A stretch of 64,000 nucleotides of DNA from Armatimonadota bacterium (GTDB lineage Bacteria > Sysuimicrobiota > Sysuimicrobiia > Sysuimicrobiales > Sysuimicrobiaceae), in contig JANXCW010000001.1 of the NCBI GenBank assembly GCA_025059775.1, forward strand, positions 221,549-285,548, given 5' to 3'. Positions 19,393 through 51,897 of this stretch are shown piece after piece. Every line of letters begins with the position of its first letter. Positions within the stretch are counted from its first letter, which is position 1. Position numbers and translations under genes: made by a program. Below the pieces are notes generated by a model. The model did not search any database and was not told where the DNA came from. It saw only the letters and a list, made by a program, of their open reading frames with translations.

Positions 19393-19484
19393 GCAGCCCT
19401 CCCGCCCTGACCCGGGGTGACCGGCGCCGCCTCCTGGGGATCAGCGCTTGTGCTTGGCTGTCCTGAGACGCGGGCACCCTCTGT

Positions 19485-20498
19485 TCAGCGGCCAATCTCG
19501 CGAGACCACCGCTCCCGGACCCTCTCTATGTTCGCGATCGCCCACTCCCGGTCATACCGGACGAACTTCACCGAGTCAAAGGGCGGAGCTCCCGCGGGGG
19601 GTTCTACATCAGCCCGCACGGGGTAGCGGAACCCGTACTGGGCATTAATGTCCTGGGGCGTTCGGGTCATGAGGAAGTCTACATACGCCTGCGCGCCTTC
19701 GGGGTTCGGTCCACCGCGGAGGATGGAGACCGCACCGATCTCGAACGCGGTGTCCGGGGGCACGATCAACTCCAGGGGCTGGGAGCGCATCCGTCGGGCC
19801 CCGATGCCCTCGTGCGCCCACATCACAGCCACGATGGCCTCGCCGCGCTCCAGCAGGGTGACGGTGCCGGGCGCGGTGGGCGTGTACTGGACAGCATTCC
19901 GGTTCAGCTCCCGGAGATATGCCCACGCGCGGTCCTCCCCCAGCCGGAAGATCTGCCCAGCCACGAAGATGTACTCCGCTCCGGTCGTAACGGGACTCGG
20001 CATGATGAACTGACCGCCGAAGTCCGGCCGCAGCAGGTCATCCCATGTGGCCGGTTCGGGGACCCGGCGCGGCGTCATCTCCCGATCCCACCGCTCGGTG
20101 TTGATCAAGATGGAAAGGATGCCCAAGTACCAGCCATGCCAATAGCTATCCCGATCCAGGAACGCCGGGCTGATCCGCGCCTCGCGGGCTACGGGGGACC
20201 GGTAAGAGACCACCAGGCCCTCCCGAGCCAGAGGAGCATGGAAGTCCGCGGAACCTCCCACGAAGACGTCCGCCCGGGGCCGGTCCCGCTCCGCGCGAAT
20301 CCGGGCTGCCAGAGTCCCCGCAGCCGCGACACTGACGGCTTCCACGGCGATCCCGGTTCTGCGAGTAAACTCCCGGTTGATCAATGACGTCTCCAAGTCC
20401 GGCAGCGCGGAGCACACCACGATCCGTCTTGCCTGCCCGCTCGCAGGAACCGCGGACGCCACCAGAAGGAGCCACACGAGCGTCCACCACCGCCGCAC
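19485..20498 (-). CDS. Fe(3+)-type ABC transporter periplasmic/extracytoplasmic substrate-binding protein (FbpA/AfuA/FutA family), apparently intact
   Basis: ORF 19485..20498. Signal peptide MRRWWTLVWLLLVASAVPASG. Family pattern IVVCSALPDLE...TGIAVEAVSVAAAGTLAARIRAE...ADVFVGGSADFHA. An AAGAGGGAGGTGAG ribosome-binding site precedes it. Confidence 0.8.
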   Translation of the reverse strand: MRRWWTLVWLLLVASAVPASGQARRIVVCSALPDLETSLINREFTRRTGIAVEAVSVAAAGTLAARIRAERDRPRADVFVGGSADFHAPLAREGLVVSYRSPVAREARISPAFLDRDSYWHGWYLGILSILINTERWDREMTPRRVPEPATWDDLLRPDFGGQFIMPSPVTTGAEYIFVAGQIFRLGEDRAWAYLRELNRNAVQYTPTAPGTVTLLERGEAIVAVMWAHEGIGARRMRSQPLELIVPPDTAFEIGAVSILRGGPNPEGAQAYVDFLMTRTPQDINAQYGFRYPVRADVEPPAGAPPFDSVKFVRYDREWAIANIERVRERWSREIGR

Positions 20499-20856
20499 CC
20501 TCTCACCTCCCTCTTAGGTCGTTTCGCCTGACGGTCCAACGGGATTCGATGGGTCTCCCGCCCCTCTCCGGAGTGGACAATTTGGGCCATCCTGGAGCAA
20601 GACTCTCAGTCTGCTTCGCTGGCGAATTGTTCGTTGGAGAGGACCGTCACGGCCCTGCACGTACTCCGGCTGAGTGCTCGCAGGGGATCAACCCTCCACG
20701 GCTGTTCTGGCTATCTAGGCTCCCGGCGGGCCCGTCGGCCGGTACGAGGGAGTGACGAGAGGCCCACACCCGGCCCGCTGGCTTCCCGAATCGGCGAGCC
20801 GGGAAAAGCGAGGCCCGCGTCCCCTCCCCCACGGTCATCAGAGTCGCCCTCAGAGC

Positions 20857-20882
20857 GTCGGGAGGCCTAAGGCCTCCCCGTC
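20857..20882. repeat. perfect GC-rich hairpin GGGAGGCC-TAA-GGCCTCCC in the 600-nt gap between phr and the Fe-transporter operon
   Basis: Seen directly in the sequence. 8-bp stem, 3-nt loop, no U-tract. Candidate terminator or structured-RNA element. Confidence 0.3.
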
Positions 20883-21105
20883 CGCCGCGGCGCCACTCCA
20901 GGCATGGTCAAAGAGCAGGGGCCAGCTCGAGGAATGCGGCGCGCTGATCGGGAGTTGGGAGGGCCCTGCCCTTTCGCTCCGGAGGAATCCCGCAGGCCTA
21001 GCCCGCTGGGGTCGCGGCGATCCAAGACCGACCCCACTGTGCTGAGTCTCGCATGCGGTCCTCGACCGGCAGATGCCCCCGGGAGGGACCTGTGCCTCGG
21101 TGAAT

Positions 21106-22497
21106 CTACCGTGAGGGACGGCGCTGAGCCGCCCGGATAGCCCTGTAACGATCCAGGGCCCGTTGGCGGGAAGCGGCGAGGTCGACCACCGGCCTTGGAT
21201 AGTCGCGTCCGACGCGGCAGCGGTAGGCAATCTGGTCGTCCCGCGGAAGCGTCCAGGGAGCGTGGACGTACGGTGCGGGCACCCGTGCGAGCTCGGGGAT
21301 CCACCTTCGAACGTAGGCACCGGCAGGGTCGAACCTCAGCCCCTGGAGCACGGGGTTAAAGATTCGGAGGTAGGGCCTCCTATCGGTTCCAATCCCAGTC
21401 ACCCACTGCCAGTTGCCGCTGTTAGACGCAGGATCGCCGTCCAACAGGTGCTCGAAAAAGTACTGTTCCCCCCACCGCCAATCCAGGAGCAGGTTCTTCA
21501 CCAGGAAGGAGGCAACCACCATGCGGGCCCGGTTGTGCATCCATCCGGTTTCACGCAGCTCCCGCATGGCGGCATCGATCAGGGGATAGCCTGTCTGGCC
21601 CTCGCACCATGTCCGGAAGATCTGCTCGTCGTTGTCCCATTCGGGCTCCTGCAGGTCCTGCCGGAGGGGCTCTCGGCGACTGTGCGGATAGTGAAACAAC
21701 AGGTGTGCGAAGAACTCCCGCCACAGGAGCTCGTCCAGCCAGCGGGCAGCACCCTTCCGGGACTCGGAGTTGTGCGCGGCGTCCATCGCCTGACGGGCGA
21801 GATGGAAGGCCACGCGGGGGGAGAGCACTCCGAAGCGCAGATAGGGAGATAGACGGGAGGTGACCTCCAGATCGATCCGGTCACGTTCCCGGTGGTATTG
21901 AAAAATGGGACCTGCGATGAAGTCCTTGAGCCTCCGGAAGCCTGCCTCCTCACCGGGCGGCCATGGGGGCGGGACCTCCGGCAGGGGCTCCGAGACGACC
22001 CCGTGGGGCGGCAGCCGGGCAGGAGGGGGGAGGGGCTCAGGGAGGGTGAGGGAGCTCAGTCGCTGATAGAACTGTCTGTACACGGTATAGCCCCGCCCCC
22101 TCCCGGTCCGAATCGCAGGTGGCGGAACCATGCTCGGCCAGCCCACCAGCTGAAGACGCACGTGGCGAGCGACTTCGGACTCCTGTCGCCGAGCGAAGGG
22201 GGAAACGTCCGCGTGAGCATACACTGCCTGGGCCCCGGTCTGCTCGACGAGTCGGGGGAGGATCTGGGAGGGATCGCCGTGGCGGACAACCAGGGAGGAT
22301 CCGAGAGTGCGCAGAGCGCGATCCAGGGTGCGGAGGTTAGCGATCAGGAAGCTTGTTCTGCGCCGGCTGAGGGTGAGCAGGCGGGGATCTAAGATGAATA
22401 CGGGGATCACTCCGCCGCTCTGCAAGGCTGCATGGAGTGCGGGGTTGTCATGTAGCCGCAGATCCCTGCGGATCCACCAGAGGTTCACGGTTTCCAC
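21106..22497 (-). CDS. phr: deoxyribodipyrimidine (CPD) photolyase
   Basis: ORF 21106..22620. NLWWIRRDLRLHDNPALHAAL...VIPVFILDP is the photolyase N-domain. The FAD-binding domain carries WREFFAHLLFHYP, GYPLIDAAMRELRETGWMHNRARMVVASFLVKNL, GNWQWVTGIGTD and PYLRIFNPVLQG. Start trimmed to GTG/TTG near 22497 (the ORF-track start at 22620 is possible). Confidence 0.9.
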   Translation of the reverse strand: METVNLWWIRRDLRLHDNPALHAALQSGGVIPVFILDPRLLTLSRRRTSFLIANLRTLDRALRTLGSSLVVRHGDPSQILPRLVEQTGAQAVYAHADVSPFARRQESEVARHVRLQLVGWPSMVPPPAIRTGRGRGYTVYRQFYQRLSSLTLPEPLPPPARLPPHGVVSEPLPEVPPPWPPGEEAGFRRLKDFIAGPIFQYHRERDRIDLEVTSRLSPYLRFGVLSPRVAFHLARQAMDAAHNSESRKGAARWLDELLWREFFAHLLFHYPHSRREPLRQDLQEPEWDNDEQIFRTWCEGQTGYPLIDAAMRELRETGWMHNRARMVVASFLVKNLLLDWRWGEQYFFEHLLDGDPASNSGNWQWVTGIGTDRRPYLRIFNPVLQGLRFDPAGAYVRRWIPELARVPAPYVHAPWTLPRDDQIAYRCRVGRDYPRPVVDLAASRQRALDRYRAIRAAQRRPSR

Positions 22498-22663
22498 CAA
22501 CTCGTCCCCGTCCGCTCCTTCCGGTTCGTCCACAGGGTACCGTATCTGGAGCCTCCTTGCGGCGGCCGGCACCGGGACCCTTCGTCGGTGTTTCCGCCCG
22601 GGAGGATCCGCCGCGGACAATGCACATCCCGCAGCCGATCCCCCGACGTCTGGAGAGAGACAC

Positions 22664-23077
22664 CTAGGGGACCCTTAGGCCCCAACGGGGAAACAGCCAC
22701 AGGCAGGCGAGGGCGGGGGGGATGTGGAGCAGCGCCAGTCCCATGGCTAGTGGCCACGTGGCCTGGGGGAATCGTGGAGAGCCGGGGAGGAGGATATTAG
22801 GTACCCACGAGACGAGCAACGCTGCCAATGCCAGCCATCGGTAGGTCCGGACGGGTTCTCTGGCCCACCGGACCACCAGGACGAAGGTCAACGCGCCCGC
22901 TGTTACCCCGACCGCTGTCAAAAACAGCACCGCCGGCCGCGTGAAGGGCTCGAACGTGGGTGGAATGTCCAGCAGTCCTTCCAGGATCGACCGGAGCAGC
23001 TCGTTCACCGATGCGGAGGCGACCAAAGCCACTCCCCAAGCCCGCACGATTCCTCCTGGTACGAGCACCCTTCGCAT
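22664..23077 (-). CDS. small hydrophobic membrane protein (4 predicted TM), hypothetical
   Basis: ORF 22664..23077. GGAAGGGAG precedes the ATG. Co-directional and contiguous with phr. No family recognised. Confidence 0.45.
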   Translation of the reverse strand: MRRVLVPGGIVRAWGVALVASASVNELLRSILEGLLDIPPTFEPFTRPAVLFLTAVGVTAGALTFVLVVRWAREPVRTYRWLALAALLVSWVPNILLPGSPRFPQATWPLAMGLALLHIPPALACLWLFPRWGLRVP

Positions 23078-23238
23078 GGCTCCCTTCCACGCCCAGCCCC
23101 TGTGCCTCGAGTACTCTTACGCGAGATTCTTCACAAAGTCTTCCGCTTCCTCCTGCGGCCTTCCCGTGTCCTTTCAGCGCCGTCCCCTCCGGCCAGATTG
23201 GACTCTCACCCCCTGGATACCTCGTAGACTCCCGGGAG

Positions 23239-23254
23239 TGGCACGGAGTGTGCA
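23239..23254 (+). promoter_or_regulatory. sigma-54 (-24/-12) promoter-like element TGGCAC-N5-GTGCA
   Basis: TGGCACGGAGTGTGCA at 23239-23254. The GG and GC dinucleotides are 12 nt apart. It lies 24 nt upstream of an ATG with a strong ribosome-binding site (GGAGGTGATTCC-ATG). Confidence 0.45.
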
Positions 23255-23278
23255 GGGCGAGGGAGCGGAGGTGATTCC

Positions 23279-23575
23279 ATGCAGGTCCGTCCTGTGGATT
23301 ATGAGCCGCAGCCACCCGGCCCTGCTTCCGGCCCCGGATTCCTCTACGCCCTGCAGCGGGTGCGGGCTGTGGGAACCGTCGGTCTTGTCCCGTCCTCCAG
23401 CACCCCTCGCACCGGGCCTGGAGCCCCCCAGTTCACCACCCCTCCCACCCCACAGTCCCCCGCACCCCCCGTATTTTTGGATCGGCTGCTGAGCTGGCTC
23501 TACCAGACGGTTCGGGGCGCCCTGGGCCTGGTGTGGTCCGGACTCGGGGAACTGGCTCGCTGGCTCCGGAAGTAG
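23279..23575 (+). CDS. small Pro-rich protein (98 aa) with C-terminal amphipathic/hydrophobic helix; hypothetical
   Basis: ORF 23279..23575. GGAGGTGA sits 5 nt before the ATG and the sigma-54-like promoter is just upstream. The gene is convergent with fliA. The low-complexity composition lowers confidence. Confidence 0.35.
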   Translation: MQVRPVDYEPQPPGPASGPGFLYALQRVRAVGTVGLVPSSSTPRTGPGAPQFTTPPTPQSPAPPVFLDRLLSWLYQTVRGALGLVWSGLGELARWLRK

Positions 23576-23603
23576 GCCGTGTGGCGTTCCCCCTCTGTCT
23601 CAC

Positions 23604-24314
23604 CTATCGGCCGAACCCACGCTGCACGAGGTAGGTTCGCAGCCGGAGCAGGGCCTGTGCGTGGATCTGGCAGACCCGGGACTCCGTGAGGTCCAGAATC
23701 TCTCCGATCTCCGCCAGGGTCAGGTCCTCGTAGTAGTACAGGCCCACCACCAGCCGCTCGCGCTCGGAGAGCGCTCCCAGGCCCTGACGCAGGGCCTCCA
23801 GCAGCTCCCGCTGCTCTGTTGCCTCCTCCGGTCCAGCGTCCGACGCCGCAGGCTCCCCCCGCTCCGTGGCCCGCCGGACCAGGTCCTCGAAGGAGGCCAC
23901 CACGTATCCGTGCAGCCGCTCCAAGTCTGCGAGGATCTCCTGCGGGGAGCAGCCCACCTCCGCTGCGAGCTCTTCCCGGGTGGGTTCTCGGCCCAGGGAG
24001 GTCACGAGCCGTTCGTGCGCCCGCTCCAACTCCCGGGCCCGCTGCCGGTCCGCTCGGCTGGCGGGGTCCAGGCTGCGGAGGTAATCCAGGATGGCACCGC
24101 GGATGCGATACCAGGCGAAGGTCTCGAACCGTACCCCGTGGGAGGGATCGTAGCGGTCCAGGGCCTCCAGCAACCCCAGCATCCCACAGCTCTCCAGATC
24201 CTCCCGGGGCACGTGGGAGGGAAGCCCCGGAGCGAGTTGCTGTACGACCGCGCGCACGAGCCCCGCATACCGCAGAACCTGCGCCTCTCGCTCCGGGGAA
24301 GCCGGCCGCGGCAT
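23604..24314 (-). CDS. fliA: flagellar sigma factor sigma-28 (FliA/SigD/WhiG family)
   Basis: ORF 23604..24710 trimmed to MPRPASPEREAQVLRYAGLVRAVV. Region 2 is YRIRGAILDYLRS. The region 4 HTH is LSERERLVVGLYYYEDLTLAEIGEILDLTESRVCQIHAQAL. It is the last gene of the fla/che operon, as in Bacillus. Confidence 0.9.
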   Translation of the reverse strand: MPRPASPEREAQVLRYAGLVRAVVQQLAPGLPSHVPREDLESCGMLGLLEALDRYDPSHGVRFETFAWYRIRGAILDYLRSLDPASRADRQRARELERAHERLVTSLGREPTREELAAEVGCSPQEILADLERLHGYVVASFEDLVRRATERGEPAASDAGPEEATEQRELLEALRQGLGALSERERLVVGLYYYEDLTLAEIGEILDLTESRVCQIHAQALLRLRTYLVQRGFGR

Positions 24315-24316: not shown

Positions 24317-24802
24317 CTACAGCTCCCGCTCCGGCCCGCCCGCGGTGCGCACCACCAGCCGGCCCGTGCCCACGTGCAGGGCCACCGTCCGGCTCACGCT
24401 TCCGCCCACGTCCTCCGCATGGGGCCGCAGGCCTTGCTTTCGCAGGGCTTCCCGGACCGCCTCCACGTTTCGGGCGCCCAGGTTCAGGACGCTGCTGGCT
24501 GCCATCCCGAACATCCCAGCGCCCCCTACAACCCAAACCACCGCGGAGGCCGGGTCTCCGCCGGCCCGCCGGAAGGACTCCAGCAGGGCGGGGATCGCGG
24601 TGTCCGCGAACTTGAAGGGCGCCGTGTCCCATCCGAAGGATTGAGGGAGCATCACGTGGGCCATGGCGCCCACGCGGGGGCATGGAGTGTGCAGCACCAC
24701 GGCCACACACGAACCCAACCCGCCCGCTAGGAGCACCGCCCCCGCATCCCGCTCCACCACCCCTTCCCCCATGCCGACCCGGATCACCCGCCCCTCACGC
24801 AC
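24317..24802 (-). CDS. cheD: chemoreceptor glutamine deamidase CheD
   Basis: ORF 24317..24853 trimmed to GTG (GGAGGAG ribosome-binding site). IRVGMGEGVV...LLAGGLGSCVAVVLH matches CheD. Confidence 0.85.
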   Translation of the reverse strand: MREGRVIRVGMGEGVVERDAGAVLLAGGLGSCVAVVLHTPCPRVGAMAHVMLPQSFGWDTAPFKFADTAIPALLESFRRAGGDPASAVVWVVGGAGMFGMAASSVLNLGARNVEAVREALRKQGLRPHAEDVGGSVSRTVALHVGTGRLVVRTAGGPEREL

Positions 24803-25586
24803 CGCTTCTCCTCCCCTGGGCCTTTCGGTAGAAGAAGGGGTACAGCGGCTCAAATCCCATCTCCCGCGCGGCGAAGATCTGCTCCGCGGCGCCCACGAAG
24901 AGGTACCCGCCGGGCGCCAGGGCCTGGTGGAACCGGCGGTACAGGTCCTGTTTGGCCTCCTCCGTGAAGTAGATGACCACGTTCCGGCAGAGGATGAGGT
25001 GCCAGGGGCCGTTGAAGGGGTCGGAGAGGAGATCGTGGCGCCGGAACCGCACCCTTTGCCGGAGCTCCGGGCTTACCCGCCACCGATTCTGCTCCCGTAC
25101 GAAAAACCGTGCCCGCCGCGGTGGCGACACGTTCCGGATGTCCGACTCCTCGTAGAACCCCTCTTCGGCCTGCCGCAGGACGCGGCCATCGATGTCCGTG
25201 CCCAGCACGGACCATCCTCCCGAGGGGTTCAGCTCCAGGAGGAGGATCCCCACACTGTAGGCCTCCGCGCCGTGGGAGCAGCCCGCGCTCCACACCCGCA
25301 GCTCCCGGAAACGGGCCAGCAGCTCCGGGAGGACCCGACGCTGGAGCACCGCAAAGAGTTCCGGATTCCGGAAGAACTCGGAGACGTGGACGGTGAGGCG
25401 ATCCACCAGGTCCGCGAGCAGAGCAGGGTCCTGCCGGGCCCGGGACACGAACTCCTCCGCGGAGCGCAGGCCCATGCGGTGCAGGGCACCCACCAGCCGC
25501 CGCTCAATCTGGTCGGGTCGGTATCGAGCGAGGTCCAGGCCCGTGCGCTGCTTCAGGAGATGCATCAGGGTCGCGTACTCACGCAT
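24795..25586 (-). CDS. cheR: chemotaxis protein methyltransferase CheR
   Basis: ORF 24795..25586. CheR_N (LLKQRTGLDLARYRPDQIERRL) and the SAM-dependent MTase fold (VSEFFRNPELF...LRVWSAGCSHGAEAYS...ILCRNVVIYF). Confidence 0.9.
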   Translation of the reverse strand: MREYATLMHLLKQRTGLDLARYRPDQIERRLVGALHRMGLRSAEEFVSRARQDPALLADLVDRLTVHVSEFFRNPELFAVLQRRVLPELLARFRELRVWSAGCSHGAEAYSVGILLLELNPSGGWSVLGTDIDGRVLRQAEEGFYEESDIRNVSPPRRARFFVREQNRWRVSPELRQRVRFRRHDLLSDPFNGPWHLILCRNVVIYFTEEAKQDLYRRFHQALAPGGYLFVGAAEQIFAAREMGFEPLYPFFYRKAQGRRSGA

Positions 25587-25986
25587 GGGGAGCTCCCAGG
25601 GCGCGCGCCAGCTCCTCCGCCGCGGCCCGCACTGCCCGTTCCTCCGCCTCCGTGAAGACCCCTCCCACCCGTCCCAGCACCACCACCGCCACCCGCTGCC
25701 CGGCGTGCTCCGCGGGGACCGCGAGGAACCCCCGGAGGGAACCGGCGCGAAGGCCTCGGCCCCGGGAGGGGACGCGGATGGTCTGCCCGGTCTCGAGGAT
25801 CCACGCCCGGAGGCCCATCCCGGCCTGGAAGGGGATCTGCTCCAGGAGGTCCAGGGGACGCCCTATGGAGACCGCGGGGATGGTGCCCGCGTGCGTGCGG
25901 AGCCAGACGGTCCCCAGGTCGAAGGGCACCTCCGCCCGCAGGCGCCGTAGGGCTTCCCGACACGCGCGGACCGCGCGCTCCCTCAT
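25579..25986 (-). CDS. small stand-alone GAF-domain protein (135 aa)
   Basis: ORF 25579..26286 trimmed to the ATG overlapping the cheB stop. GAF-like pattern (...GLRAWILETGQTIRVPS...FLAVPAEHAGQRVAVVVLGRVGGVFTEAEERAV). It sits between cheB and cheR, a slot normally occupied by cheA/cheW/cheC in Bacillus-type operons. Confidence 0.55.
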   Translation of the reverse strand: MRERAVRACREALRRLRAEVPFDLGTVWLRTHAGTIPAVSIGRPLDLLEQIPFQAGMGLRAWILETGQTIRVPSRGRGLRAGSLRGFLAVPAEHAGQRVAVVVLGRVGGVFTEAEERAVRAAAEELARALGAPHA

Positions 25987-26960
25987 ACCCCCTCTCCCAC
26001 GATCCGGGCCACCTCCTCCCCGATGCGCTCCAGGGGCAGCACGAAGTCCGCGAGCCCCGCTTCCACCACGGCCCGCGGCATCCCGTACACCACGCTGGTC
26101 TCCTCGTTCTGGGCGATTACGAGCCCGCCCGTCCGCTTGATGCGCCGGCAGCCCTCCAGCCCGTCCCGCCCCATGCCTGTGAGCACCACCCCCAGGACCG
26201 GGGAGTAGGTCTCCGCGAGGGAGGAGAAGGTGATGTCCGCGGATGGTCGGAGGATCTCCGAAGGTTCTGGCTCCACCACGGCCCACCGACCGTCCCGCAC
26301 CACCAGCTGCCGTCCGCCGGGTGCCACGTAAGCCACTCCGGGCTGCGGTGCGACCCCGTCCTCCGCCTCCTCTACCCGGATCCGGCCCACCTCGTGGAGC
26401 CGCCGCGCCAGGCTCGCGGTGAACCCGGGGGGCATATGCTGCACCACCACCAAGGGGAGCGGGAGGGGCGGGAGGTGGGAGAAGAATACGGTGAGGGCCG
26501 CGGGACCCCCCGTGGAGGCGGCCACGGCCACCACCCGCACCCGGGCCTTCTTCTGCCGCCGGGGAAGGCGGGCCTGGGCCGCGGCCTTCACCTTCTGCAC
26601 CAGCGGGTGGAGATCCCGCACCGACAGGGGGCCCGAAGGTTTCGCCTCCACCTCCACTGCCCCCGCTTCCAGGGCCTTGAGGGCGAGATCCGCCCCCCGG
26701 ACGGTGTGGGCGCTCAGCACCACCACGGGAGTCCAGAGCTCGCGGGCAAGGGTTCGCAGGGCCACCAACCCGTCCATTACCGGCATCTCCAGATCCAGGG
26801 TTACCACGTCCGGTCGCAGCCTCCGGACCAGCTCCACGGCCTGGGCACCGTGGGCGGCTAAGCCCACTACCTCCACCTCTGGATCCTGCTCCAGGGCGGA
26901 GCAGAGCAGTCCTCGAAAGGTAGGGGAGTCGTCGACCACCACCACCCGGACCCGCCTCAT
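25983..26960 (-). CDS. cheB: protein-glutamate methylesterase/deamidase CheB (REC + methylesterase)
   Basis: ORF 25983..27749 trimmed to MRRVRVVVVDDSPTFRGLL (REC with DD, D-phosphosite, T, K). The methylesterase domain carries AVAASTGGP, VVQHMPPGFT and GMGRDG. Confidence 0.9.
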   Translation of the reverse strand: MRRVRVVVVDDSPTFRGLLCSALEQDPEVEVVGLAAHGAQAVELVRRLRPDVVTLDLEMPVMDGLVALRTLARELWTPVVVLSAHTVRGADLALKALEAGAVEVEAKPSGPLSVRDLHPLVQKVKAAAQARLPRRQKKARVRVVAVAASTGGPAALTVFFSHLPPLPLPLVVVQHMPPGFTASLARRLHEVGRIRVEEAEDGVAPQPGVAYVAPGGRQLVVRDGRWAVVEPEPSEILRPSADITFSSLAETYSPVLGVVLTGMGRDGLEGCRRIKRTGGLVIAQNEETSVVYGMPRAVVEAGLADFVLPLERIGEEVARIVGEGV

Positions 26961-27568
26961 CTCCTGGACCGCCACATCTCCTCCCGCGTCGTGAGAACCC
27001 TCCGGGCCGCGGCCGCGCTTAAGGGATCCCACTGGATGCCCACCGCGAAGGACCGAGCCCGATCGAACTGCGGCCGGCTCCACACCACCCGGCCTACGAG
27101 GGAAGCCCCCGCCCGTCCCGGAACCGTGACGAGCACCTGCTCGCCGGGTCTGGGCTCCGGCCAGGGGTTCACGAGCTCCAGGCGACACCCTCCCGCGGAG
27201 AGATCCACCAGCCACGCCTCTACGAGTCGCGTGGGGTGCTGATCCAGGCGGGCCATGTACACACGGGCGGACAGAGGCCGACGGGGCAGAGCCCGCCGAT
27301 CCACGGGGCGCAGCGGTCCCGCCAGTCGCACGCACACCGCCTCCACGGGCAGCCGCACGCACTCCGTTACGGTCCCCTCGAACTCCCAGGCCCCACCCTC
27401 CCCGTACAGCCGACCCCGCACCCGGGTTCCGGCGGGCAGCAGGAAGGGCTGTCCTCGCTCCATGGGGGCGCTGAGGAGAACCTGGCCCGCGCCCACTTCC
27501 TCCACCCGCACGGGGTAGGCTCTCCCGCCCACCCACAGCTCCACCCGCTGGTTCTCCCGCAGCTCCAT
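26957..27568 (-). CDS. YcgR/MotI-like PilZ-domain protein (PilZN + PilZ), predicted c-di-GMP-binding flagellar brake
   Basis: ORF 26957..27568. The RxxxR motif (RRALPRRPLSAR) and DxSxGG motif (DLSAGGCRL) of PilZ are both present. It occupies the flhF/flhG position between flhA and cheB. Confidence 0.75.
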   Translation of the reverse strand: MELRENQRVELWVGGRAYPVRVEEVGAGQVLLSAPMERGQPFLLPAGTRVRGRLYGEGGAWEFEGTVTECVRLPVEAVCVRLAGPLRPVDRRALPRRPLSARVYMARLDQHPTRLVEAWLVDLSAGGCRLELVNPWPEPRPGEQVLVTVPGRAGASLVGRVVWSRPQFDRARSFAVGIQWDPLSAAAARRVLTTREEMWRSRR

Positions 27569-27571
27569 GGC

Positions 27572-29584
27572 TTATCCGTCTATGCTGACCATCCCCAGCT
27601 TGTGGAGGTTCAGGTCCGGCTCCAGCTCCTCGAAGGCAATCACCGGGATCTGCGGGACCACGTGCTCCACGAGCCGCCGCACCGCGCTGCGCACGACCCC
27701 GGAGCACAGGAGCACGGGGTGGGGGCTTCCTCGAGAGGCGGCCTCCCACGCGGTTCGGATGGCTTGTTGCAGCCGATGCAGGACCTCCGCATCCACCCGC
27801 TTGCCCTGGGCGCCATCCACGAGCGCGGCCTCCGCACTGGGGTCCAAGACCAGCACGTGCAGGCGGCGTGCTTCATCCAGCAGGTGCTGGTAGAGGCCCC
27901 GACCCAGGGCCCGCCGCACGAGCTCCACAAGTCGTTCAGGCTCCTTCACGGATCGTCCATGATCCGCCAGGGTCTCCAGGATGGTGACGAGGTCCCGGAT
28001 GGGCACACCTTCCTGCAGGAGCAGCTGCAGCACCCGCTGCACCTCGCCCACGCTCAGGACTTGAGGCACCAGCTCCTCCACCAGGGCCTTCTGCCGCTCC
28101 CGCAGCCGATCCAGCATCTCCTGGACATCCTGCCGGCTCAGCAGGCGCCACCCGTGGCGCCGCACCACCTCCGCGAGGTGGGTGGCCACCACCACGGAGG
28201 GCTCCACCACGGTGTAGCCGCTCGCCTCCGCCACCGCCCGCTCGTGCTCCGAGATCCACACCGCGGGGGTACCGAAGGTAGGATCCGTGGTCTGTACGCC
28301 GGGCAGTTCCGGTGCCTCCGGGGCGGTCCGGATGGCCAGTAACCCCCCGGGCATTACCTCCCCCCGGGCCACCTCTACGCCCCGGAGGAGAATCCGGTAC
28401 TCCCGGGAACCCAGGGTGGGTTCATCCCGCACCCGGACGGGCGGGATCACGAGGCCCATCTGAGCGGCCACCTGCCTGCGCAGGGCCACGATGCGCTGCA
28501 ATAGATCCCCACCCCGGGTGGGCTCCACCAGCTCGATGAGGCCGTAGCCGATCTCCACGCAGAGGGGATCCACCTCTGTGAGGCCGTGCACGGCCTCCTG
28601 GGGGGGCGCGCTCGGCGCCTGCGGCTCGGGCGGGTTCTGCGGGGCCCGCAGTGCCCACCCCACCGCGGCCAGAACCCCTCCCACGAGCAGAAACGCCAGT
28701 TTGGGGAGGCCTGGAAACAGCCCTACTGCGGCCACGATGCCGCCCGCGGCCAGAAGCGGTCGCCACCGGGCCGTGAGCTGGGCCACGAGGTCCGCACCCA
28801 GGTGGTCCCCACCCGCGGTGCGGGTGAGGATGAGGCCGCTTGCGGCGGAGAGCAACAAGGAAGGGATCTGGAGCGCGAGCCCGGCCCCCACCGCCTGGAG
28901 GGCGAAGGCCTGCGCGGCCTCCCCGGGCGAGAGGCCGCGGCCCAGGCCGACTCCGAACCCGCCCAGGAGGTTGATGGCGGTGATCAACAGGCCCGCGATG
29001 GCATCCCCCCGCACAAACTTGCTGGCCCCGTCCATGGAGCCGAAGAAGTCGGACTGTCGCTCCACCTGCCGCCGCCGCTCTCGGGCCGCCTCCTCCGTGA
29101 GGGTACCCGCGTTGAGCTCCGCGTCGATGCTCATCTGCTTGCCGGGCATGGCGTCCAGGGCGAACCGGGCCGCCACCTCCGCCATGCGGCTGGTGCCGTT
29201 GGTGACCACCAGGAACTGCACGAGGAGCAGGATGGTGAAGATCACCAGGCCTACCACGAGGTTTCCGCCCACCACGAGGCCCCCGAAGGCGGCCACCACA
29301 CTCCCCGCGGATCCCTGGGTGAGGATGAGGCGGGCCATGGCCACGTTGAGACCCAGCCGTCCCAGGGCCGCGGCCAACAGCAGGGAGGGAAACACCGATA
29401 GCTGCAGGGGATCCGTGACGTACGCGGTGGCGAGCAGCACCACCACGGAGAGGGCCAGGTTCGCGATGAGCAGGACGTCCACGAGCGGGGTGGGAAGGGG
29501 AACCACCAGGGTGGCGGTGATCAGCAGCAGGCACGCCACCAGTCCCAGGTCGCTGCTCTGCACGAGCCGCCGGCCGAAGGTCAC
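27572..29584 (-). CDS. flhA: flagellar biosynthesis protein FlhA
   Basis: ORF 27572..29701 trimmed to the GTG that overlaps the flhB stop (GTGA). Motifs FPSLLLAAALGRLGLNVA, RFALDAMPGKQMSIDAELNAG and GSMDGASKFVRGDAIAGLLI. Confidence 0.9.
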   Translation of the reverse strand: MTFGRRLVQSSDLGLVACLLLITATLVVPLPTPLVDVLLIANLALSVVVLLATAYVTDPLQLSVFPSLLLAAALGRLGLNVAMARLILTQGSAGSVVAAFGGLVVGGNLVVGLVIFTILLLVQFLVVTNGTSRMAEVAARFALDAMPGKQMSIDAELNAGTLTEEAARERRRQVERQSDFFGSMDGASKFVRGDAIAGLLITAINLLGGFGVGLGRGLSPGEAAQAFALQAVGAGLALQIPSLLLSAASGLILTRTAGGDHLGADLVAQLTARWRPLLAAGGIVAAVGLFPGLPKLAFLLVGGVLAAVGWALRAPQNPPEPQAPSAPPQEAVHGLTEVDPLCVEIGYGLIELVEPTRGGDLLQRIVALRRQVAAQMGLVIPPVRVRDEPTLGSREYRILLRGVEVARGEVMPGGLLAIRTAPEAPELPGVQTTDPTFGTPAVWISEHERAVAEASGYTVVEPSVVVATHLAEVVRRHGWRLLSRQDVQEMLDRLRERQKALVEELVPQVLSVGEVQRVLQLLLQEGVPIRDLVTILETLADHGRSVKEPERLVELVRRALGRGLYQHLLDEARRLHVLVLDPSAEAALVDGAQGKRVDAEVLHRLQQAIRTAWEAASRGSPHPVLLCSGVVRSAVRRLVEHVVPQIPVIAFEELEPDLNLHKLGMVSIDG

Positions 29585-30627
29585 CAGGGCACCTCCCGCA
29601 GCTGGCCCGAGCGGTACAGCGCCGCGAGCAGTTCCGCCACCGCGTGGTACAGGGCGGGTGGGATCATGCGGCCCAGCGCGACACCCCGGTAGAGGGCCCA
29701 CGCGAGGGGCGGATTCTCCACGACCGGCACCCGGTGGCGGACTGCCTCTTCCCGGATGCGGTCCGCCATCTTCCGAGCCCCCTTCGCGACCACCACGGGC
29801 GCGGGCGCTTCCCGCGGAGCGTACCGGAGGGCCACGGCCACGTGCACGGGGTTGGTGACCACTACCGTGGCCCGGGCCACGTCCCGCAGCATCCGGCGTC
29901 GCGCGAGTTCCCGGGCCCGGGCCCGCTGTCGGGACCGCACGAGGGGATCGCCCTCCGTCTCCCGCAGCTCCTCCCGCACCTCCTGCTTGGTCATGCGCAG
30001 GGCGCGCTCGTGTTCAAAGCGCTGGTAGAGATAGTCCAATCCCCCAAGAAAGGCCAGGGCAATAGCCCCCCGCAGGGCCACCGCGTACACCGTCCTTCCT
30101 ATCCAAACGGCAAGTGCCGAGGGAGAGAGGATCGCGGGAGGTGTCTCCAATACAGCCTTCTGGAGCGGCCCCCACACCGCCACGGCCACCGCGGCCACCT
30201 TGAGCAGGGCCTTCAAGCCCTCCACCACGGAGCGCAGGGAGAAAAGCCGCTCCAGGGCTCGCAGGGGGTTGAGGCGGTCCAGGCTCGGCTCCAGGGGCTT
30301 GCCGCTGAACAATCCCCCGGTCTGCGCCACGCCCGCCGCGAGCCCGGCTGCAAGGGCCGCGCCCACCACGGGACCCATAAGCCACACAGCGGCCACCACG
30401 CCCTCGGCCACCAGGGCCGGGAGCTGATGCGGATCCGGGGAGCTCAGCACGCGCCGGGTGTACTCCGCATACGCTCCGAACCCACCCGGAAGGGCAAGAG
30501 CCCCCGTCGCCACCGCAGCCAGGAGGGCCGCGCCCTGTGTGAGGTCGTGGCTCCGGGCCACCTGCCCCCGGCGTCGGGCCTCCTGGCGCCGCCTCGGGGT
30601 CGCGGGTTCCGTGCGCTGGCTCGCCAT
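29581..30627 (-). CDS. flhB: flagellar biosynthesis protein FlhB
   Basis: ORF 29581..30627. MASQRTEPATPRRRQEARRRGQVARS and the NPVH autocleavage site (VVVTNPVHVAVAL). Confidence 0.9.
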   Translation of the reverse strand: MASQRTEPATPRRRQEARRRGQVARSHDLTQGAALLAAVATGALALPGGFGAYAEYTRRVLSSPDPHQLPALVAEGVVAAVWLMGPVVGAALAAGLAAGVAQTGGLFSGKPLEPSLDRLNPLRALERLFSLRSVVEGLKALLKVAAVAVAVWGPLQKAVLETPPAILSPSALAVWIGRTVYAVALRGAIALAFLGGLDYLYQRFEHERALRMTKQEVREELRETEGDPLVRSRQRARARELARRRMLRDVARATVVVTNPVHVAVALRYAPREAPAPVVVAKGARKMADRIREEAVRHRVPVVENPPLAWALYRGVALGRMIPPALYHAVAELLAALYRSGQLREVPW

Positions 30628-30644
30628 GGCACCTTAAAGGGGTA

Positions 30645-30660
30645 TGCAAAGGTCGTGCCG
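30645..30660 (-). promoter_or_regulatory. sigma-54 promoter GGCAC-N5-TTGCA immediately upstream of flhB
   Basis: Minus-strand reading cGGCACgacctTTGCAtacccctttaaggtgccATG. The -12 TTGCA is the reverse complement of 30645-30649 and the -24 GGCAC is the reverse complement of 30655-30659. The ATG of flhB lies 18 nt downstream. Confidence 0.55.
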
Positions 30661-30664
30661 GGAC

Positions 30665-31513
30665 CTAGGCGAGGTCCTCGGTGGCAAAGCTCGAGACCTC
30701 CACGAGCAGGTCCGCGAGCCCCACCAGCAGGAGGGGGATCTCGTCCGCGCTGAGCCCCAGACGCCGGAGGGCTCCCTCGCTGCACCGATGCAGCAGCTGA
30801 TCCGCCCCCACGCCCACTCCCAGCATGAGGCACAGGATGTCCGCCACATGCACCGCATCCGCAAGCCCGGGATCTTCTGACTCATCGGGCCGATGGTGGT
30901 ACGCGATGGCGGTGATGAGGGAATCCGGTAGGTTCCACCGCCGGGCTGCCTCCGCGCCCACCTGGGCATGGTCGCAGCCCAGCACAGCCCGCTCCGCCTC
31001 TACGAAGTCCATGCCGCTTGCCACGGCTTCCAGCACCGCCGGGTATTGCTCCTGGAGGGCGCTGCTGAGGGCCAGCTTGCCGATGTCGTGCAGCAGCCCC
31101 GCTACGAAGGCGGCCTCCCCATCCCGTCCCCGGCTTCCCCCCAGGTGGCGCGCCACGGTGGCCACCGCCAGGGAGTGCTGCCACAGCTGCACCCGGTCCA
31201 GGCCGTAGCCGGGGGCCCCGGATCGGAAAACATCGTAGGCCACTGCACTCGCCAGCAGGCTACGCACCGCGGCGAACCCCACCAGCACCACCGCCTCCCG
31301 CAGGGTCGCCACGCGTCTGGCGCGGAGGTACAGGGCGGAGTTCGCCAATCGGAGCATCCGGGCCGCCAGCACGGGATCCCTCCCGAGCACCGAGGCCACC
31401 TCCTCCGCGGAGGTGTTGAGATCGTCAAGGAGCCGCATCGCCTCCACCACGTGCGCGGGAAAGGGCTTCAGGGTCTCGAACGCCATCAGGATCCGGTCGG
31501 GGATGCGGCTCAC
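30665..31513 (-). CDS. HDOD-domain protein (HD-related output domain, c-di-GMP-network associated)
   Basis: ORF 30665..32140 trimmed to the GTG overlapping the fliR stop. Typical HDOD pattern with HDIGK (FVAGLLHDIGKLAL). It is inserted between fliR and flhB. Confidence 0.7.
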   Translation of the reverse strand: MSRIPDRILMAFETLKPFPAHVVEAMRLLDDLNTSAEEVASVLGRDPVLAARMLRLANSALYLRARRVATLREAVVLVGFAAVRSLLASAVAYDVFRSGAPGYGLDRVQLWQHSLAVATVARHLGGSRGRDGEAAFVAGLLHDIGKLALSSALQEQYPAVLEAVASGMDFVEAERAVLGCDHAQVGAEAARRWNLPDSLITAIAYHHRPDESEDPGLADAVHVADILCLMLGVGVGADQLLHRCSEGALRRLGLSADEIPLLLVGLADLLVEVSSFATEDLA

Positions 31514-32265
31514 GGCCCCCTCCGCAGGAGCTGTGCCGCGGCCCACAGGGTCCGGGTGAACTCCGCTTCCATGCCCCCGAACAGGTACGGCAAAAACAGC
31601 CCCACCAGCACCAGTCCCACTCCCACCTTGAGGGGGAGGCTTGTAAGGAACACATTCACCTGCGGGGCCGCCCTCGCCACCAGGGCAATCCCCACCTCCA
31701 CCGCGAGGGAGGCCACGAGGAACGGCGCGGCGAGCTGCACCCCGCTCAAAAAGCTCGCGGCGGCCACCTCTACGGCCCACCTCCCCACCGGGCCCGCGGG
31801 CAGGAAGGCCGTGGGGGGAAGCCGGTGGAAGCTGGTCCCCACCAGGCGCAGGGCATGGTGGTGGGCGTCCGTGGCGAGGTACAGGGCAGTGGCCAGGACC
31901 GTCCACAGCTGTGCGAGGACCGTGGACTCCGTACCGTGTACCGGATCCACGAGGTGCCCCGTGCCGAGCCCCAGGCTCAACTCCGCCACCTGGGCCGCCA
32001 CCTGGACCGCGGCGAAGGCCAGGGCCACCCCCCATCCCAAGAAGAGGCCTACGCTCACCTCCTTTACCACCAGGGCCCCGAACACCGAAGCGGCCTCCGG
32101 GACCGGTACCCGGGCCGCGGGAACGGTGGCGGCCAAGCATAGGCCGAGCCCTACCCGGGCCGGGACAGGCACCCGGGGTCCCCCAAGGATCGGAAGGGCC
32201 AGGAGAAAGCCAGACACCCGGGCGGCCCCCAGCAGCAGCGGCAGCAACCCTCCCGAATCCGGCAT
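31510..32265 (-). CDS. fliR: flagellar biosynthetic protein FliR
   Basis: ORF 31510..32550 trimmed to MPDSGGLLPLLLGAARVSGFLLALPIL. The start overlaps the fliQ stop. Confidence 0.85.
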   Translation of the reverse strand: MPDSGGLLPLLLGAARVSGFLLALPILGGPRVPVPARVGLGLCLAATVPAARVPVPEAASVFGALVVKEVSVGLFLGWGVALAFAAVQVAAQVAELSLGLGTGHLVDPVHGTESTVLAQLWTVLATALYLATDAHHHALRLVGTSFHRLPPTAFLPAGPVGRWAVEVAAASFLSGVQLAAPFLVASLAVEVGIALVARAAPQVNVFLTSLPLKVGVGLVLVGLFLPYLFGGMEAEFTRTLWAAAQLLRRGP

Positions 32266-33268: not shown

Positions 33269-33624
33269 CGTGGCTCTCCTCCCACCCGCCGCAGACGTCG
33301 CGCGGCCGCCCGCAGCTTCTCCCCGAAGCTCTCCGTCTCTTGGGCAGGCGCGGGCCCCAGCTCCGCGAGCACGGAGAGGTGGCTTCCGAGCAGCAGCCGC
33401 CTCTCGCCCACCTCCACCACGTACAGCACGTGGTGAGGGCTCAACCGGGCCACCTCCCGCAGCCGCACCGTGGAGGAATGCCCCCCGGGCCCCATCCGCA
33501 TCAGGAGGTAGCGGGTAAGGAGCACAAGCCCCACCACCAGGACAAGACCCGCCAGGGCCCGGAGGAGCAGGGAGGCCGGGTGGATCTCCGGGGCAGGGGG
33601 TGAGGCCGCAAGCAGCAGGCTCAC
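33265..33624 (-). CDS. fliO: flagellar biosynthesis protein FliO/FliZ (single TM)
   Basis: C-terminal 119 codons of ORF 33265..34419, from the GTG overlapping the fliY stop. LLLRALAGLVLVVGLVLLTRYLLMRMGPG...LREVARLSPHHVLYVVEVGERRLLLG. It keeps the position between fliY and fliP seen in Bacillus. Confidence 0.55.
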   Translation of the reverse strand: MSLLLAASPPAPEIHPASLLLRALAGLVLVVGLVLLTRYLLMRMGPGGHSSTVRLREVARLSPHHVLYVVEVGERRLLLGSHLSVLAELGPAPAQETESFGEKLRAAARRLRRVGGEPR

Positions 33625-34604
33625 GGACGGTCCTCCGGGCCTCGGCTCAGGGTGCGCAGGCGCTGCTCGGGGCTGAGGATCTCCGTAACCCGGACCCCGA
33701 AGTTCTCCTCGATGACCACCACCTCGCCCCGGGCAAAGAGCCGATCGTTCACATACAGGTCCACGGGCTCCCCCGCGGCCCGCTCGAGCTCGATCACCGC
33801 CCCGATCCCCAGGGAGAGCACGTCGCGGATCCGCATCCGGGTGCGGCCCAGCTCCACGGTGACCTGGAGGGGGACGTCCAGCAGCAGGTCCAGGTTTCGG
33901 TCGGGGCTGGTGGTGCGCCGCGGTTCCAGGGGTTCGAACTCCACGGGCCGCACCGCAGGGGTATGAGGTGCCGCAGGGACCTGTGGGGGAGGCGAAGGAG
34001 AGCCCGCCACGCGTCGGGCAGCTTGGGCGCTCCGCTCCACCAGCTGCGGGAGCACGGAGGCCTCGTAGATCTGGTAGAAGGTGGTCTCCAGAAACCCCTC
34101 CATGTCCAGGCGGAAGGTCACCAGGACCACCTGGTCTGCCGGCTGGAGGAGCCGCTCCACCGCTTCCTCGGTTTCCAGCACCACCACTTGAGGCGGTGAG
34201 ATGGTGACGGGGGAACCCAGAAATTCCGCGAGGGCGGTGCTCGCGGAGCCCATCATCTGGTTCATGGCCTCCCCGGCCCCGCTCAGCAGGAGCTCCTGAT
34301 CCAAAGGCCGGGCCACGGATCCATCCCCGCCCATCATGAGATCCACGAGCACCCGGACGTCCTCCTCCCGCAGGAGCAGGTAGCTGCGGCTCGTGACGGC
34401 TCCGGAGGTGTGCACGCATACCCCCACGTGTCCCACCAGGGAGCTCCGATCCACCTCGGACCAGCGGAGGAGCTCCGCCCTGGGCGCGGTGATGCGCACC
34501 CGCCGCCGCACCAGTTGCGAGAGGGTGGTGGCCGCGGAGCCCATGCCGATGTTGGAGAGCTCCGCCAGCAGGTCCAGGGGGTCCACCGGGTACGGATTAG
34601 CCAT
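33621..34604 (-). CDS. fliY: flagellar motor switch phosphatase FliY (CheC-like domains + FliN C-terminus)
   Basis: ORF 33621..34604. CheC-like N-terminus LLAELSNIGMGSAATTLSQL. The C-terminal FliN/SpoA domain is VPLQVTVELGRTRMRIRDVLSLGIGAVIELERAAGEPVDLYVNDRLFARGEVVVIEENFGVRV. Confidence 0.85.
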   Translation of the reverse strand: MANPYPVDPLDLLAELSNIGMGSAATTLSQLVRRRVRITAPRAELLRWSEVDRSSLVGHVGVCVHTSGAVTSRSYLLLREEDVRVLVDLMMGGDGSVARPLDQELLLSGAGEAMNQMMGSASTALAEFLGSPVTISPPQVVVLETEEAVERLLQPADQVVLVTFRLDMEGFLETTFYQIYEASVLPQLVERSAQAARRVAGSPSPPPQVPAAPHTPAVRPVEFEPLEPRRTTSPDRNLDLLLDVPLQVTVELGRTRMRIRDVLSLGIGAVIELERAAGEPVDLYVNDRLFARGEVVVIEENFGVRVTEILSPEQRLRTLSRGPEDRP

Positions 34605-42826: not shown

Positions 42827-43254
42827 GGTCTGCGCATCGAGCGCAGCAGGGCGGCTTCGTCCGCCTGTACCTGCTCGCGCCGCTCCTCCTCCCGGCGGTG
42901 CTGCAGCAGCCGCCGCTCCCGCAGCCGCTCCACCACCTGCCGCTCCGTCCTGACCTGCAAAAACCGTGCCCAAGCCGCCTCCACCTGGGTCCTCCATTCC
43001 ACCATCCTCTGCTCCGCGGTTACGGCCCCCAGCCGGGCTCGCTCGAGAACCGCGGCGGCCACGCGCAGGGCCCGGGCATCCTGGGCCTCCCGCACGCGCG
43101 CCTCCGCCTCCCGAACCTCGCTGCGGGCCCGCTCCAGCCGCACCTCTGCCTCCCGGAGGGCCCGGAGGAGGTCGCTGAGTTCCCGGCGGGCCTGCCGCTC
43201 CCGGATCATCCGCAGCCGCCGCAGGCCCTCCAGCCGGAACCGGAACCGCCGCAT
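42823..43254 (-). CDS. fliJ: flagellar export chaperone FliJ (coiled coil)
   Basis: ORF 42823..43464 trimmed to MRRFRFRLEGLRRLRMIRERQARRELSDLLRAL. Size (143 aa) and position after fliI fit FliJ. Confidence 0.65.
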   Translation of the reverse strand: MRRFRFRLEGLRRLRMIRERQARRELSDLLRALREAEVRLERARSEVREAEARVREAQDARALRVAAAVLERARLGAVTAEQRMVEWRTQVEAAWARFLQVRTERQVVERLRERRLLQHRREEERREQVQADEAALLRSMRRP

Positions 43255-51895: not shown

Positions 51896-51897
51896 CC

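Follow-up and report, generated by a model that had tools for sequence, protein, structure and literature searches.

The 64,000-nucleotide stretch analysed here (the window; Armatimonadota bacterium, contig JANXCW010000001.1, G+C ~70%) carries a motility supercluster from an uncultured, deep-branching lineage, in which genes for a PilZ, an HDOD and a GAF protein stand among the flagellar and chemotaxis genes. We consider it probable that the PilZ gene holds an old slot beside which flhF was lost, that the HDOD and GAF genes are lineage-specific accessories, and that cyclic di-GMP (c-di-GMP) is turned over by HD-GYP and GGDEF proteins encoded in the same region. The comparison of synteny proposed in the initial annotation of the window found the PilZ slot to be common and flhF to be lost beside PilZ, leaving only the HDOD and GAF placements as unusual. 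Genes were called by codon-position G+C and then by Pfam scans; gene content, motifs, synteny, selection and promoter motifs were observed directly. The genes at the centre of the analysis are:

31510-32247, minus strand: fliR (Bac_export_1, 185 bits)
30665-31513, minus strand: gene for a stand-alone HDOD protein of 282 aa, between fliR and flhB (Pfam HDOD, 196.3 bits, and HD, 57 bits)
29581-30627, minus strand: flhB (Bac_export_2, 364 bits)
27572-29584, minus strand: flhA (FHIPEP, 764 bits), with its stop codon 3 nt from the PilZ ATG
26957-27568, minus strand: gene for a PilZNR-PilZ protein of 203 aa, a predicted MotI/YcgR-type c-di-GMP receptor (Pfam PF12945 and PF07238)
25983-26945, minus strand: cheB (Response_reg and CheB_methylest)
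25579-25986, minus strand: gene for a stand-alone GAF protein of 135 aa, between cheB and cheR (Pfam GAF and GAF_2)
24795-25586, minus strand: cheR (CheR_N and CheR)

The placement of the HDOD and GAF genes and of a PilZ gene with intact RxxxR and DxSxGG motifs between flhA and cheB had already been described in the initial annotation, and Pfam and the motifs confirm it. Homologues of the three proteins at 56-93% identity come from metagenome-assembled genomes (MAGs) named Armatimonadota by NCBI, and the taxonomic label of the lineage is taken from these names alone.

The PilZ slot is shared with many other bacteria. FlhA loci with 10-kb flanks were drawn from GTDB species representatives and mapped by running hidden Markov models (HMMs) of the window protein families and of Bacillus FlhF, FlhG, CheC and CheY on all open reading frames (ORFs). 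The surveyed loci belong to distant phyla (FlhA at most 48% identical), and the survey counts throughout hold among the matches listed. At least 3 kb downstream of flhA is available in 72 loci. A PilZ gene on the same strand and at most 4.5 kb downstream of flhA occurs in 21 of these, spread over many phyla, and flhF is also present in 19 of the 21. The commonest order is flhA-flhF-flhG-PilZ-cheB/cheA, found in Lachnospiraceae, Oscillospiraceae, Clostridium, Selenomonadaceae, Desulfovirgula and others. A Pfam check of ten survey ORFs returned nine PilZ proteins, six of them with PilZNR too, and the FlhF of the relative L082 as the tenth. Both c-di-GMP motifs are present in nearly all survey PilZ ORFs. 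Firmicute-type fla/che operons (Clostridia, Desulfovirgula, Selenomonadaceae; L008, L011, L017, L033, L051, L068 and others) carry PilZNR-PilZ at the window's relative position, before cheB, cheA or fliA, but unlike the window they keep flhF and flhG and have no fliR-HDOD-flhB, no cheB-GAF-cheR and no sigma-54 motif. Two survey loci pass directly from flhA to PilZ. One of them, L003 (Atribacterota), with the order flhA-PilZ-cheB-cheR-cheC-cheD-fliA, shares the window's flhF/flhG-less junction and downstream che order, whereas its FlhA is just 48% identical, HDOD and GAF are absent and cheC is present. A brake gene placed inside a fla/che operon is a common, ordinary and known arrangement. A literature search for PilZ genes after flhG in clostridial operons returned no direct statement, and the claim for these operons rests on the survey. 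The initial annotation had called the arrangement of the window not the textbook one, which is true relative to Bacillus subtilis but not to Clostridia and other phyla, where PilZ genes inside fla/che operons are common. The motI gene of B. subtilis is located outside its fla/che operon.

Closer relatives, gathered by protein look-ups and a metagenome scan with FliF, differ in what lies between flhA and PilZ:

Outer relative, two contigs of run ERR14788556 (L086 and L101; FlhA 64-75%): fliR-HDOD-flhB-flhA-flhF-PilZ-cheB-(GAF-GGDEF)-cheR-cheC-cheD-fliA
Middle relatives L082 and L083: the order of the outer relative without cheC, FlhF being short (263-267 aa, SRP54 domain) and GAF encoded alone
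The window and its 93% relative L084: no flhF

FlhF was found in L082, L083, L100 and L101, with the order flhA-flhF-PilZ-cheB in L082, L083 and L101, and is missing in L084 as in the window. The 3 nt between flhA and PilZ leave no space for flhF. Neither FlhF nor FlhG was detected within the 64 kb by tblastn (FlhF from two relatives, FlhF and FlhG from one Bacillus locus) or by HMMs built from 60 and 46 loci, which returned only P-loop noise with E at least 0.03. Compared with the junctions of flhF-keeping relatives, the 3-nt spacer ahead of PilZ was retained after the loss. The window FlhA ends in DG before the stop, and the relatives read VDAG at the corresponding part of FlhA and end FlhF in G; these junction sequences are consistent with a clean deletion of flhF. 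PilZ coexists with flhF in the sisters and in 19 other loci, so its slot is a widespread one of long standing, next to which flhF was lost. As judged from these gene orders, PilZ appears to lie next to flhA only because flhF was deleted in the window's sub-lineage, and the slot just after flhA(-flhF-flhG) is likely ancestral. Downstream of flhA, flhG is absent from the cluster of the four relatives that could be read there (L082, L083, L100, L101). Together with the flhF deletion, this means that the cluster was trimmed and nothing was swapped in. The FlhF of the clade is short (263-285 aa; L082 13975-14778, L083 13925-14716, L101 1464-2321) and essentially an SRP54-type G domain, scoring far under the NCBIfam FlhF cut-offs and with no flhG alongside. 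In another outer relative (L100, GCA_016210785.1), positions 5613-7722 hold two PilZNR-PilZ genes with an 89-aa ORF between them, followed by a GAF gene.

The PilZ protein has the features of a flagellar brake. Its N-terminal domain matches PilZNR (PF12945) at 36.9 bits against a cut-off of 23, and its C-terminal domain matches PF07238 at 45.2 bits against 22.5. The c-di-GMP motifs R92ALPR96 (RxxxR) and D122LSAGG127 (DxSxGG) lie at the domain junction and are invariant in 9 orthologues (10 sequences). An AlphaFold2 model (predicted local distance difference test 82.6) has two beta-barrels and a C-terminal helix. B. subtilis MotI (5VX6, E 2e-10) is its best Foldseek match in the PDB, with PlzD 2RDE, MrkH and YcgR 5Y6F as further matches; a phmmer search against PDB sequences gave no match. 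The ratio of non-synonymous to synonymous substitution rates (dN/dS) is 0.15, and in NCBI the orthologues already go by the name 'flagellar brake protein'. Control of flagella by c-di-GMP through PilZ brakes is well established. MotI (DgrA/YpfA) of B. subtilis and YcgR of E. coli share the two-domain PilZNR-PilZ layout with RxxxR and DxSxGG at the junction; the window gene differs from theirs in being a translationally packed cistron between flhA and cheB, where its role as a brake is predicted from sequence. The protein would most simply be a c-di-GMP-gated brake or clutch of the ordinary MotI/YcgR type, with high c-di-GMP loading the PilZ protein and stalling the motor.

The placement of the HDOD gene is lineage-specific and the unusual part of the cluster. 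HDOD lies between fliR and flhB in every close relative (L082-L086), in a slot held down to 56% identity. Of the 73 outside loci that have fliR and flhB, none has HDOD at this position, and no gap between the two genes exceeds 400 nt. In L100, a 494-nt gap between fliR and flhB carries a sigma-54 motif in place of HDOD. The GTG start of the gene overlaps the fliR stop by 4 nt, and its dN/dS against L084 is 0.10, with 0.17 for FliR and 0.14 for FlhB, which points to strong purifying selection on HDOD. The protein covers positions 2-196 of 196 of the HDOD profile PF08668 and passes the NCBIfam HDIG metalloprotein model. By sequence, its PDB relatives are 3HC1 (the best; Geobacter, di-iron), 3M1T, 3P3Q and 1VQR. 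In 3HC1, two irons sit in the pocket, coordinated by five His and one Asp (PMC12075610). Residues H113, H142, D143, H182, H206 and H207 of the window protein align with these ligands, and the positions are conserved in 117-128 of 128 homologues. This conservation supports HDOD as a putative flagellum-linked metalloprotein; calling it a c-di-GMP module is a guess. An identity as an HD-GYP phosphodiesterase was rejected, the HHExxDGxGYP motif being replaced by YHHRPDESEDPGL with no GYP. The nearest homologues outside the clade (40-46% identity; Synergistetes, Moorellales) sit in housekeeping contexts. Stand-alone HDOD genes also occur just after fliA or near cheA in five surveyed loci (L004, L009, L014, L025, L034) from KSB1, Fibrobacterota, Ignavibacteriota and other MAGs, in slots that differ from that of the window.

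HDOD proteins have been linked to motility before. Swimming is altered by the HDOD gene PSPTO_4229 (PMC11813219) and by PFL_0554, PFL_5871, GsmR and Cj0248 (PMC11004494). C. jejuni Cj0248 (PDB 1VQR), X. campestris GsmR, Pseudomonas SadB, PSPTO_4229, PFL_0554 and PFL_5871 have an HDOD domain like that of the window protein. The parts of the literature available to us describe repeated genetic ties to swimming with the mechanism not known (PMC11004494, PMC11813219, PMC6543031), and in those parts none of the motility-linked HDOD genes is reported inside an export-gate operon, unlike the gene of the window. SadB also lacks three metal-binding His (PMC12075610), whereas the window HDOD has all of them. 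We propose that HDOD is a lineage-specific accessory, the last cistron of a sigma-54-driven fliL-fliR unit and probably translationally coupled to fliR, and that its most likely role is to act on the assembly or rotation of the flagellum as a metal-dependent regulator or hydrolase. A strongly conserved, fliR-coupled gene with an intact metal site is a clean candidate for an HDOD protein acting at the flagellum itself, and a handle on HDOD function is the chief reason for interest in the HDOD and GAF placements, an interest that is mild to moderate.

The GAF protein scores 36.1 bits with PF01590 and 34.0 bits with PF13185, and its gene overlaps the cheB stop by 4 nt and the cheR start by 8 nt. 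Word-based and full HMM searches found the family confined to this lineage, where the slot is held down to ~47% identity and dN/dS is 0.28. Its nearest homologues, P0141 and P0140, are both in flagellar clusters. P0141, in the cheB-cheR slot of the outer relative, joins GAF to a GGDEF domain (42.6 bits) that is catalytically dead (active site DARTL, metal-binding loop deleted) and keeps the RxxD I-site (RSTD). P0140 is GAF-only and follows flhA-flhF and two PilZ genes with an 89-aa ORF between them. The window GAF lacks the GGDEF half of P0141 and hence the I-site, so it does not bind c-di-GMP in that way. The structural model has a generic GAF fold (predicted TM-score 0.78), with 3EEA and the GAF domains of DosS and DosT as best matches at a TM-score of ~0.7. 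Its pocket loops are of low confidence, and the fold matches point to no particular ligand class; a sequence search against the PDB gave nothing useful. C9 is the only invariant Cys, and no His is invariant. A cyclic nucleotide monophosphate or haem sensor was considered and rejected, no supporting residues having been found. Fold matches of the PilZ and GAF models include PelD (4ETZ) and 5XLY, a complex of CheR1 with c-di-GMP-bound MapZ, in which a c-di-GMP receptor acts on CheR elsewhere. P0141 shares the architecture of PelD-type receptors (GAF with a degenerate GGDEF, c-di-GMP at the I-site), whereas the window protein is GAF alone, with no membrane part and no I-site. Compared with control of methylation by MapZ and CheR1, its link to CheB and CheR comes from gene order only. 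This order suggests that GAF may act on CheB or CheR. Co-translated with both, it would most likely modulate receptor methylation. The series of GAF and GAF-dead-GGDEF proteins in the cheB-cheR slot suggests a second-messenger input to receptor methylation in an unstudied phylum.

Two further genes of the region are predicted to set the level of c-di-GMP:

48937-50913, plus strand: predicted GAF-GAF-PAS-GGDEF diguanylate cyclase, divergent from flgB (PF00990, 138 bits)
58636-60063, minus strand: predicted GAF-HD-GYP phosphodiesterase, between the sigma-54 activator gene and cheW (HD_5 PF13487, 139 bits)

Both had been picked out in the initial annotation, and both keep their motifs. The cyclase has an intact GGDEF A-site and an RxxD I-site (READ) and contains READLLGRLGGDEF, and is predicted to be active. 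The phosphodiesterase has HD (LHDVGK) and HHExxDGxGYP (HHERWDGRGYP) motifs and contains HHHERWDGRGYP; its true start is likely a GTG near 60015, downstream of a sigma-54 motif. The two genes differ in their history. The GAF-HD-GYP gene is conserved in relatives L092-L098. The block of a Big5 gene, an unknown gene and the GGDEF gene between rpoN and flgB is found only in the window and its 90% relative L090, and is therefore a recent insertion and not a trait of the lineage. In seven relatives, MCP (methyl-accepting chemotaxis protein), activator, HD-GYP, cheW, cheA, cheY, rpoN and flgB form an unbroken series, and in most relatives the che cluster runs directly into flgB. Within the block, the genes at 51898-54535 (minus strand) are the Big_5-domain gene and one for a proline-rich protein of 488 aa with a weak, sub-cut-off Pfam match, and ~1 kb (50913-51898) holds no convincing ORF. 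We infer all ligand binding, enzyme activity and partner contacts of this scheme: c-di-GMP would be lowered by the conserved GAF-HD-GYP enzyme of the che unit and, in this genome, raised by the recently inserted cyclase. The idea of a flagellar core wired to c-di-GMP keeps its footing in PilZ and HD-GYP, which are conserved members of the supercluster, and, for the window itself, in a predicted active cyclase next to flgB. In Clostridioides difficile, the Cd1 c-di-GMP riboswitch lies upstream of flgB. No Rfam family reached its gathering score anywhere in the window, no GEMM-I or GEMM-II riboswitch was found in the flgB leader, and this leader is ~10 nt behind a sigma-54 motif. The C. difficile system also places c-di-GMP control within the flagellar operon, and in the window such control would differ in being post-translational, with no riboswitch.

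The sequence GGCAC-N5-TTGCA has six exact matches in the window, against 0.09 expected, all on the coding strand:

30645-30659, minus strand: sigma-54 motif in the 37-nt HDOD-flhB gap, at a site shared by L083, L084, L085 and L100
36041-36055, minus strand: sigma-54 motif upstream of fliL, conserved in relatives
42956-42970, minus strand: sigma-54 motif inside fliJ, ~130 nt ahead of the SLT gene, conserved in L090-L097
48872-48886, minus strand: sigma-54 motif upstream of flgB, also in L090 and L091
60040-60054, minus strand: sigma-54 motif ahead of the HD-GYP gene, conserved in L092-L098
61299-61313, minus strand: sigma-54 motif ahead of the activator gene, conserved in L092-L098

Most of them are soon followed by a Shine-Dalgarno-like sequence and a start codon. 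Relatives carry the motif at corresponding positions, whereas all 80 outside loci lack it. Given six conserved motifs, the 'operon' would be several sigma-54 units. As laid out by these motifs, HDOD would end the fliL-fliR unit, and PilZ and GAF would belong to the flhB-fliA unit. A scan of the operon for sigma-70 promoters and terminators found nothing over the shuffled background. The proteins of the predicted cascade are encoded in the cluster:

54448-55839, minus strand: rpoN, sigma-54 (Sigma54 CBD, DBD and AID domains)
60064-61317, minus strand: AAA+ sigma-54 activator without a helix-turn-helix (Sigma54_activat and AAA_lid_14), ending after the lid at residue 417

Matches of the activator to NCBIfam end before the DNA-binding part of every model, and its N-terminal region is receiver-like but poorly matching. 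In the FlgR-RpoN regulon of Campylobacter and Helicobacter, the activator likewise lacks a DNA-binding domain, and flagellar genes are preceded by sigma-54 promoters. The window differs in phylum and gene order, in the degenerate look of its receiver domain and in having rpoN and the activator in the cluster, and no FlgS-like kinase was seen in it. That a flagellar cluster of Firmicute style is organised around sigma-54 is another trait of the lineage that deserves mention.

Several points weigh against the favoured explanation of an old PilZ slot, a lost flhF and lineage-specific HDOD and GAF accessories. The 80-locus survey is a biased sample, consisting of the best FlhA matches among species representatives. 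The window PilZ is only ~12-16% identical to solved brakes, and its global TM-score against them is ~0.4, partly through domain orientation (high root-mean-square deviation). The sigma-54 promoters are known as motif matches only. The difference between GAF and GAF-GGDEF may reflect either domain loss or fusion.

The alternative that survives best, although we consider it unlikely, draws HDOD into the c-di-GMP circuit, where near the export gate it would either bind c-di-GMP, pGpG or a related nucleotide as a receptor or hydrolyse it in a metal-dependent way, with GAF as the remnant partner of an I-site receptor, giving four or five c-di-GMP nodes. The HD superfamily membership of HDOD, its complete set of five His and one Asp and its passing of the HDIG metalloprotein model would fit, as would the dead GGDEF with a kept RxxD fused to the nearest homologue of GAF in the cheB-cheR slot, and 5XLY indicates that CheR can be the target of a c-di-GMP receptor. 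A GYP motif is missing from HDOD, however, and the window GAF comes without the GGDEF half that would carry an I-site. Experiments on SadB point both ways: the P. fluorescens protein (YbaK-HDOD) was reported to bind c-di-GMP (PMC6543031), but P. aeruginosa SadB, in which three metal-binding His are absent, showed no c-di-GMP binding by Biacore (PMC12075610), and the HDOD domain has been described as without phosphodiesterase activity (PMC6543031). The initial annotation had counted HDOD and GAF as c-di-GMP modules, a label that is not supported, as neither domain is an established c-di-GMP binder and the SadB literature is contradictory (PMC6543031 versus PMC12075610). A bolder proposal, in our estimate quite unlikely, makes HDOD a flagellum-dedicated di-metal enzyme or sensor, co-translated with FliR and with the type III export gate or the motor as its direct target. 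It might, for example, sense or hydrolyse c-di-GMP or pGpG or respond to a redox or gas signal, and the cluster would pair it with the sigma-54 cascade and with a GAF/I-site module for the tuning of CheB and CheR. If true, it would give the first genomic and biochemical handle on HDOD domain function.

HDOD and GAF might instead be neutral passengers, insertions kept by chance in a packed operon and without a role in motility. Other clearly foreign insertions do occur in the cluster, namely a Na/Ca exchanger gene between motB and fliL and the Big5-unknown-GGDEF block before flgB, and beyond the lineage the nearest relatives of HDOD have no flagellar context. The slots have nevertheless been kept at 56% (HDOD) and ~47% (GAF) identity, and the start and stop codons of both genes overlap their neighbours. 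The dN/dS of 0.10 for HDOD, as low as or below that of core genes, and of 0.28 for GAF also argue against passengers, as do the recurrence of HDOD genes by fliA or cheA in five unrelated loci and the finding of GAF homologues in flagellar clusters only. We regard this explanation as improbable.

Least credible is the reading of the initial annotation, in which PilZ, HDOD and GAF as c-di-GMP modules take over the roles of FlhF and FlhG (placement, number) and of CheY and CheC and rewire the core to a second messenger: the position of PilZ straight after flhA, the absence of flhF and flhG from the window and the five signalling genes (GGDEF, HD-GYP, PilZ, HDOD, GAF) in or beside the cluster speak for it, but we hold it to be highly improbable and it is already contradicted by synteny, with PilZ beside flhF in L082, L083 and L101 and accompanied by flhF or flhF-flhG in a further 19 loci, a recent flhF loss that left PilZ unchanged, 17 of the 72 loci likewise without flhF or flhG next to flhA (most also without PilZ), and both a cheY and a FliY phosphatase gene present:

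55851-56213, minus strand: cheY, adjoining cheA (Response_reg, 118 bits, 120 aa)
33621-34604, minus strand: fliY, a CheC-domain phosphatase fused to the FliN C-terminal domain (CheC and FliMN_C; NCBIfam FliY phosphatase equivalog, 292.7 against 218)

The window cheY is 86-99% identical to those of relatives. With cheY in the window and CheC domains in FliY, the functions of CheY and of a CheC-type phosphatase are not missing. The initial statement that flhF, flhG, cheC and an operon-internal cheY are absent is therefore correct for flhF and flhG within the 64 kb, and has to be amended for cheY, which adjoins cheA, and for cheC, whose type of phosphatase is present as FliY.

The wider cluster, as called by Pfam and codon-position G+C, is densely packed on the minus strand from 48860 down to 23604 and follows a Firmicute-style order from flgB to fliR, then flhB and flhA, then che genes and fliA. 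It begins with flgB, flgC, fliE, fliF, fliG, fliH, fliI, fliJ, an SLT lytic transglycosylase gene and a FliK-like ORF, continues with flgD, flgE, flbD, motA, motB, the Na/Ca exchanger gene, fliL, fliM, fliY, fliO, fliP, fliQ and fliR, and after fliR runs through HDOD, flhB, flhA, PilZNR-PilZ, cheB, GAF and cheR to its last two genes:

24317-24772, minus strand: cheD, after cheR (CheD, 91.6 bits)
23604-24314, minus strand: fliA/sigD, sigma-28 type, the final cluster gene (Sigma70 r2/r3/r4; NCBIfam FliA_WhiG, 239 bits against a cut-off of 189.6)

Numerous junctions are 4- or 8-nt overlaps, including fliR/HDOD, flhB/flhA, cheB/GAF and GAF/cheR. Upstream of flgB, also on the minus strand, lie two MCP genes, the sigma-54 activator gene, GAF-HD-GYP, cheW, cheA, cheY and rpoN, followed by the Big_5-domain gene and a gene with only a weak, sub-cut-off Pfam match.

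The FliK-like ORF (40794-42308, minus strand) occupies the position of fliK, encodes 504 aa rich in proline and glycine and has no Pfam match; its conservation in relatives is confined to the C-terminal part, at ~42-59% identity. The Na/Ca-exchanger gene (PF01699; 36096-37097, minus strand) lies in a stretch of lower G+C (~0.65) and is found between motB and fliL in the window only. It is absent in every relative including L084 and L090, even at 90-93% identity, so its insertion is very recent. Just downstream of it, the fliL sigma-54 motif is retained. Beyond fliA, ~6.6 kb up to a flavin adenine dinucleotide-oxidase gene (~17000-23600) are absent in the 93% relative L084 and hold a DUF6069 gene, a photolyase gene and an ABC transporter. 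The permease of this transporter is in pieces of 123 and 133 aa and its ATPase is without the N-terminal part, and these broken genes may be pseudogenes or assembly errors.

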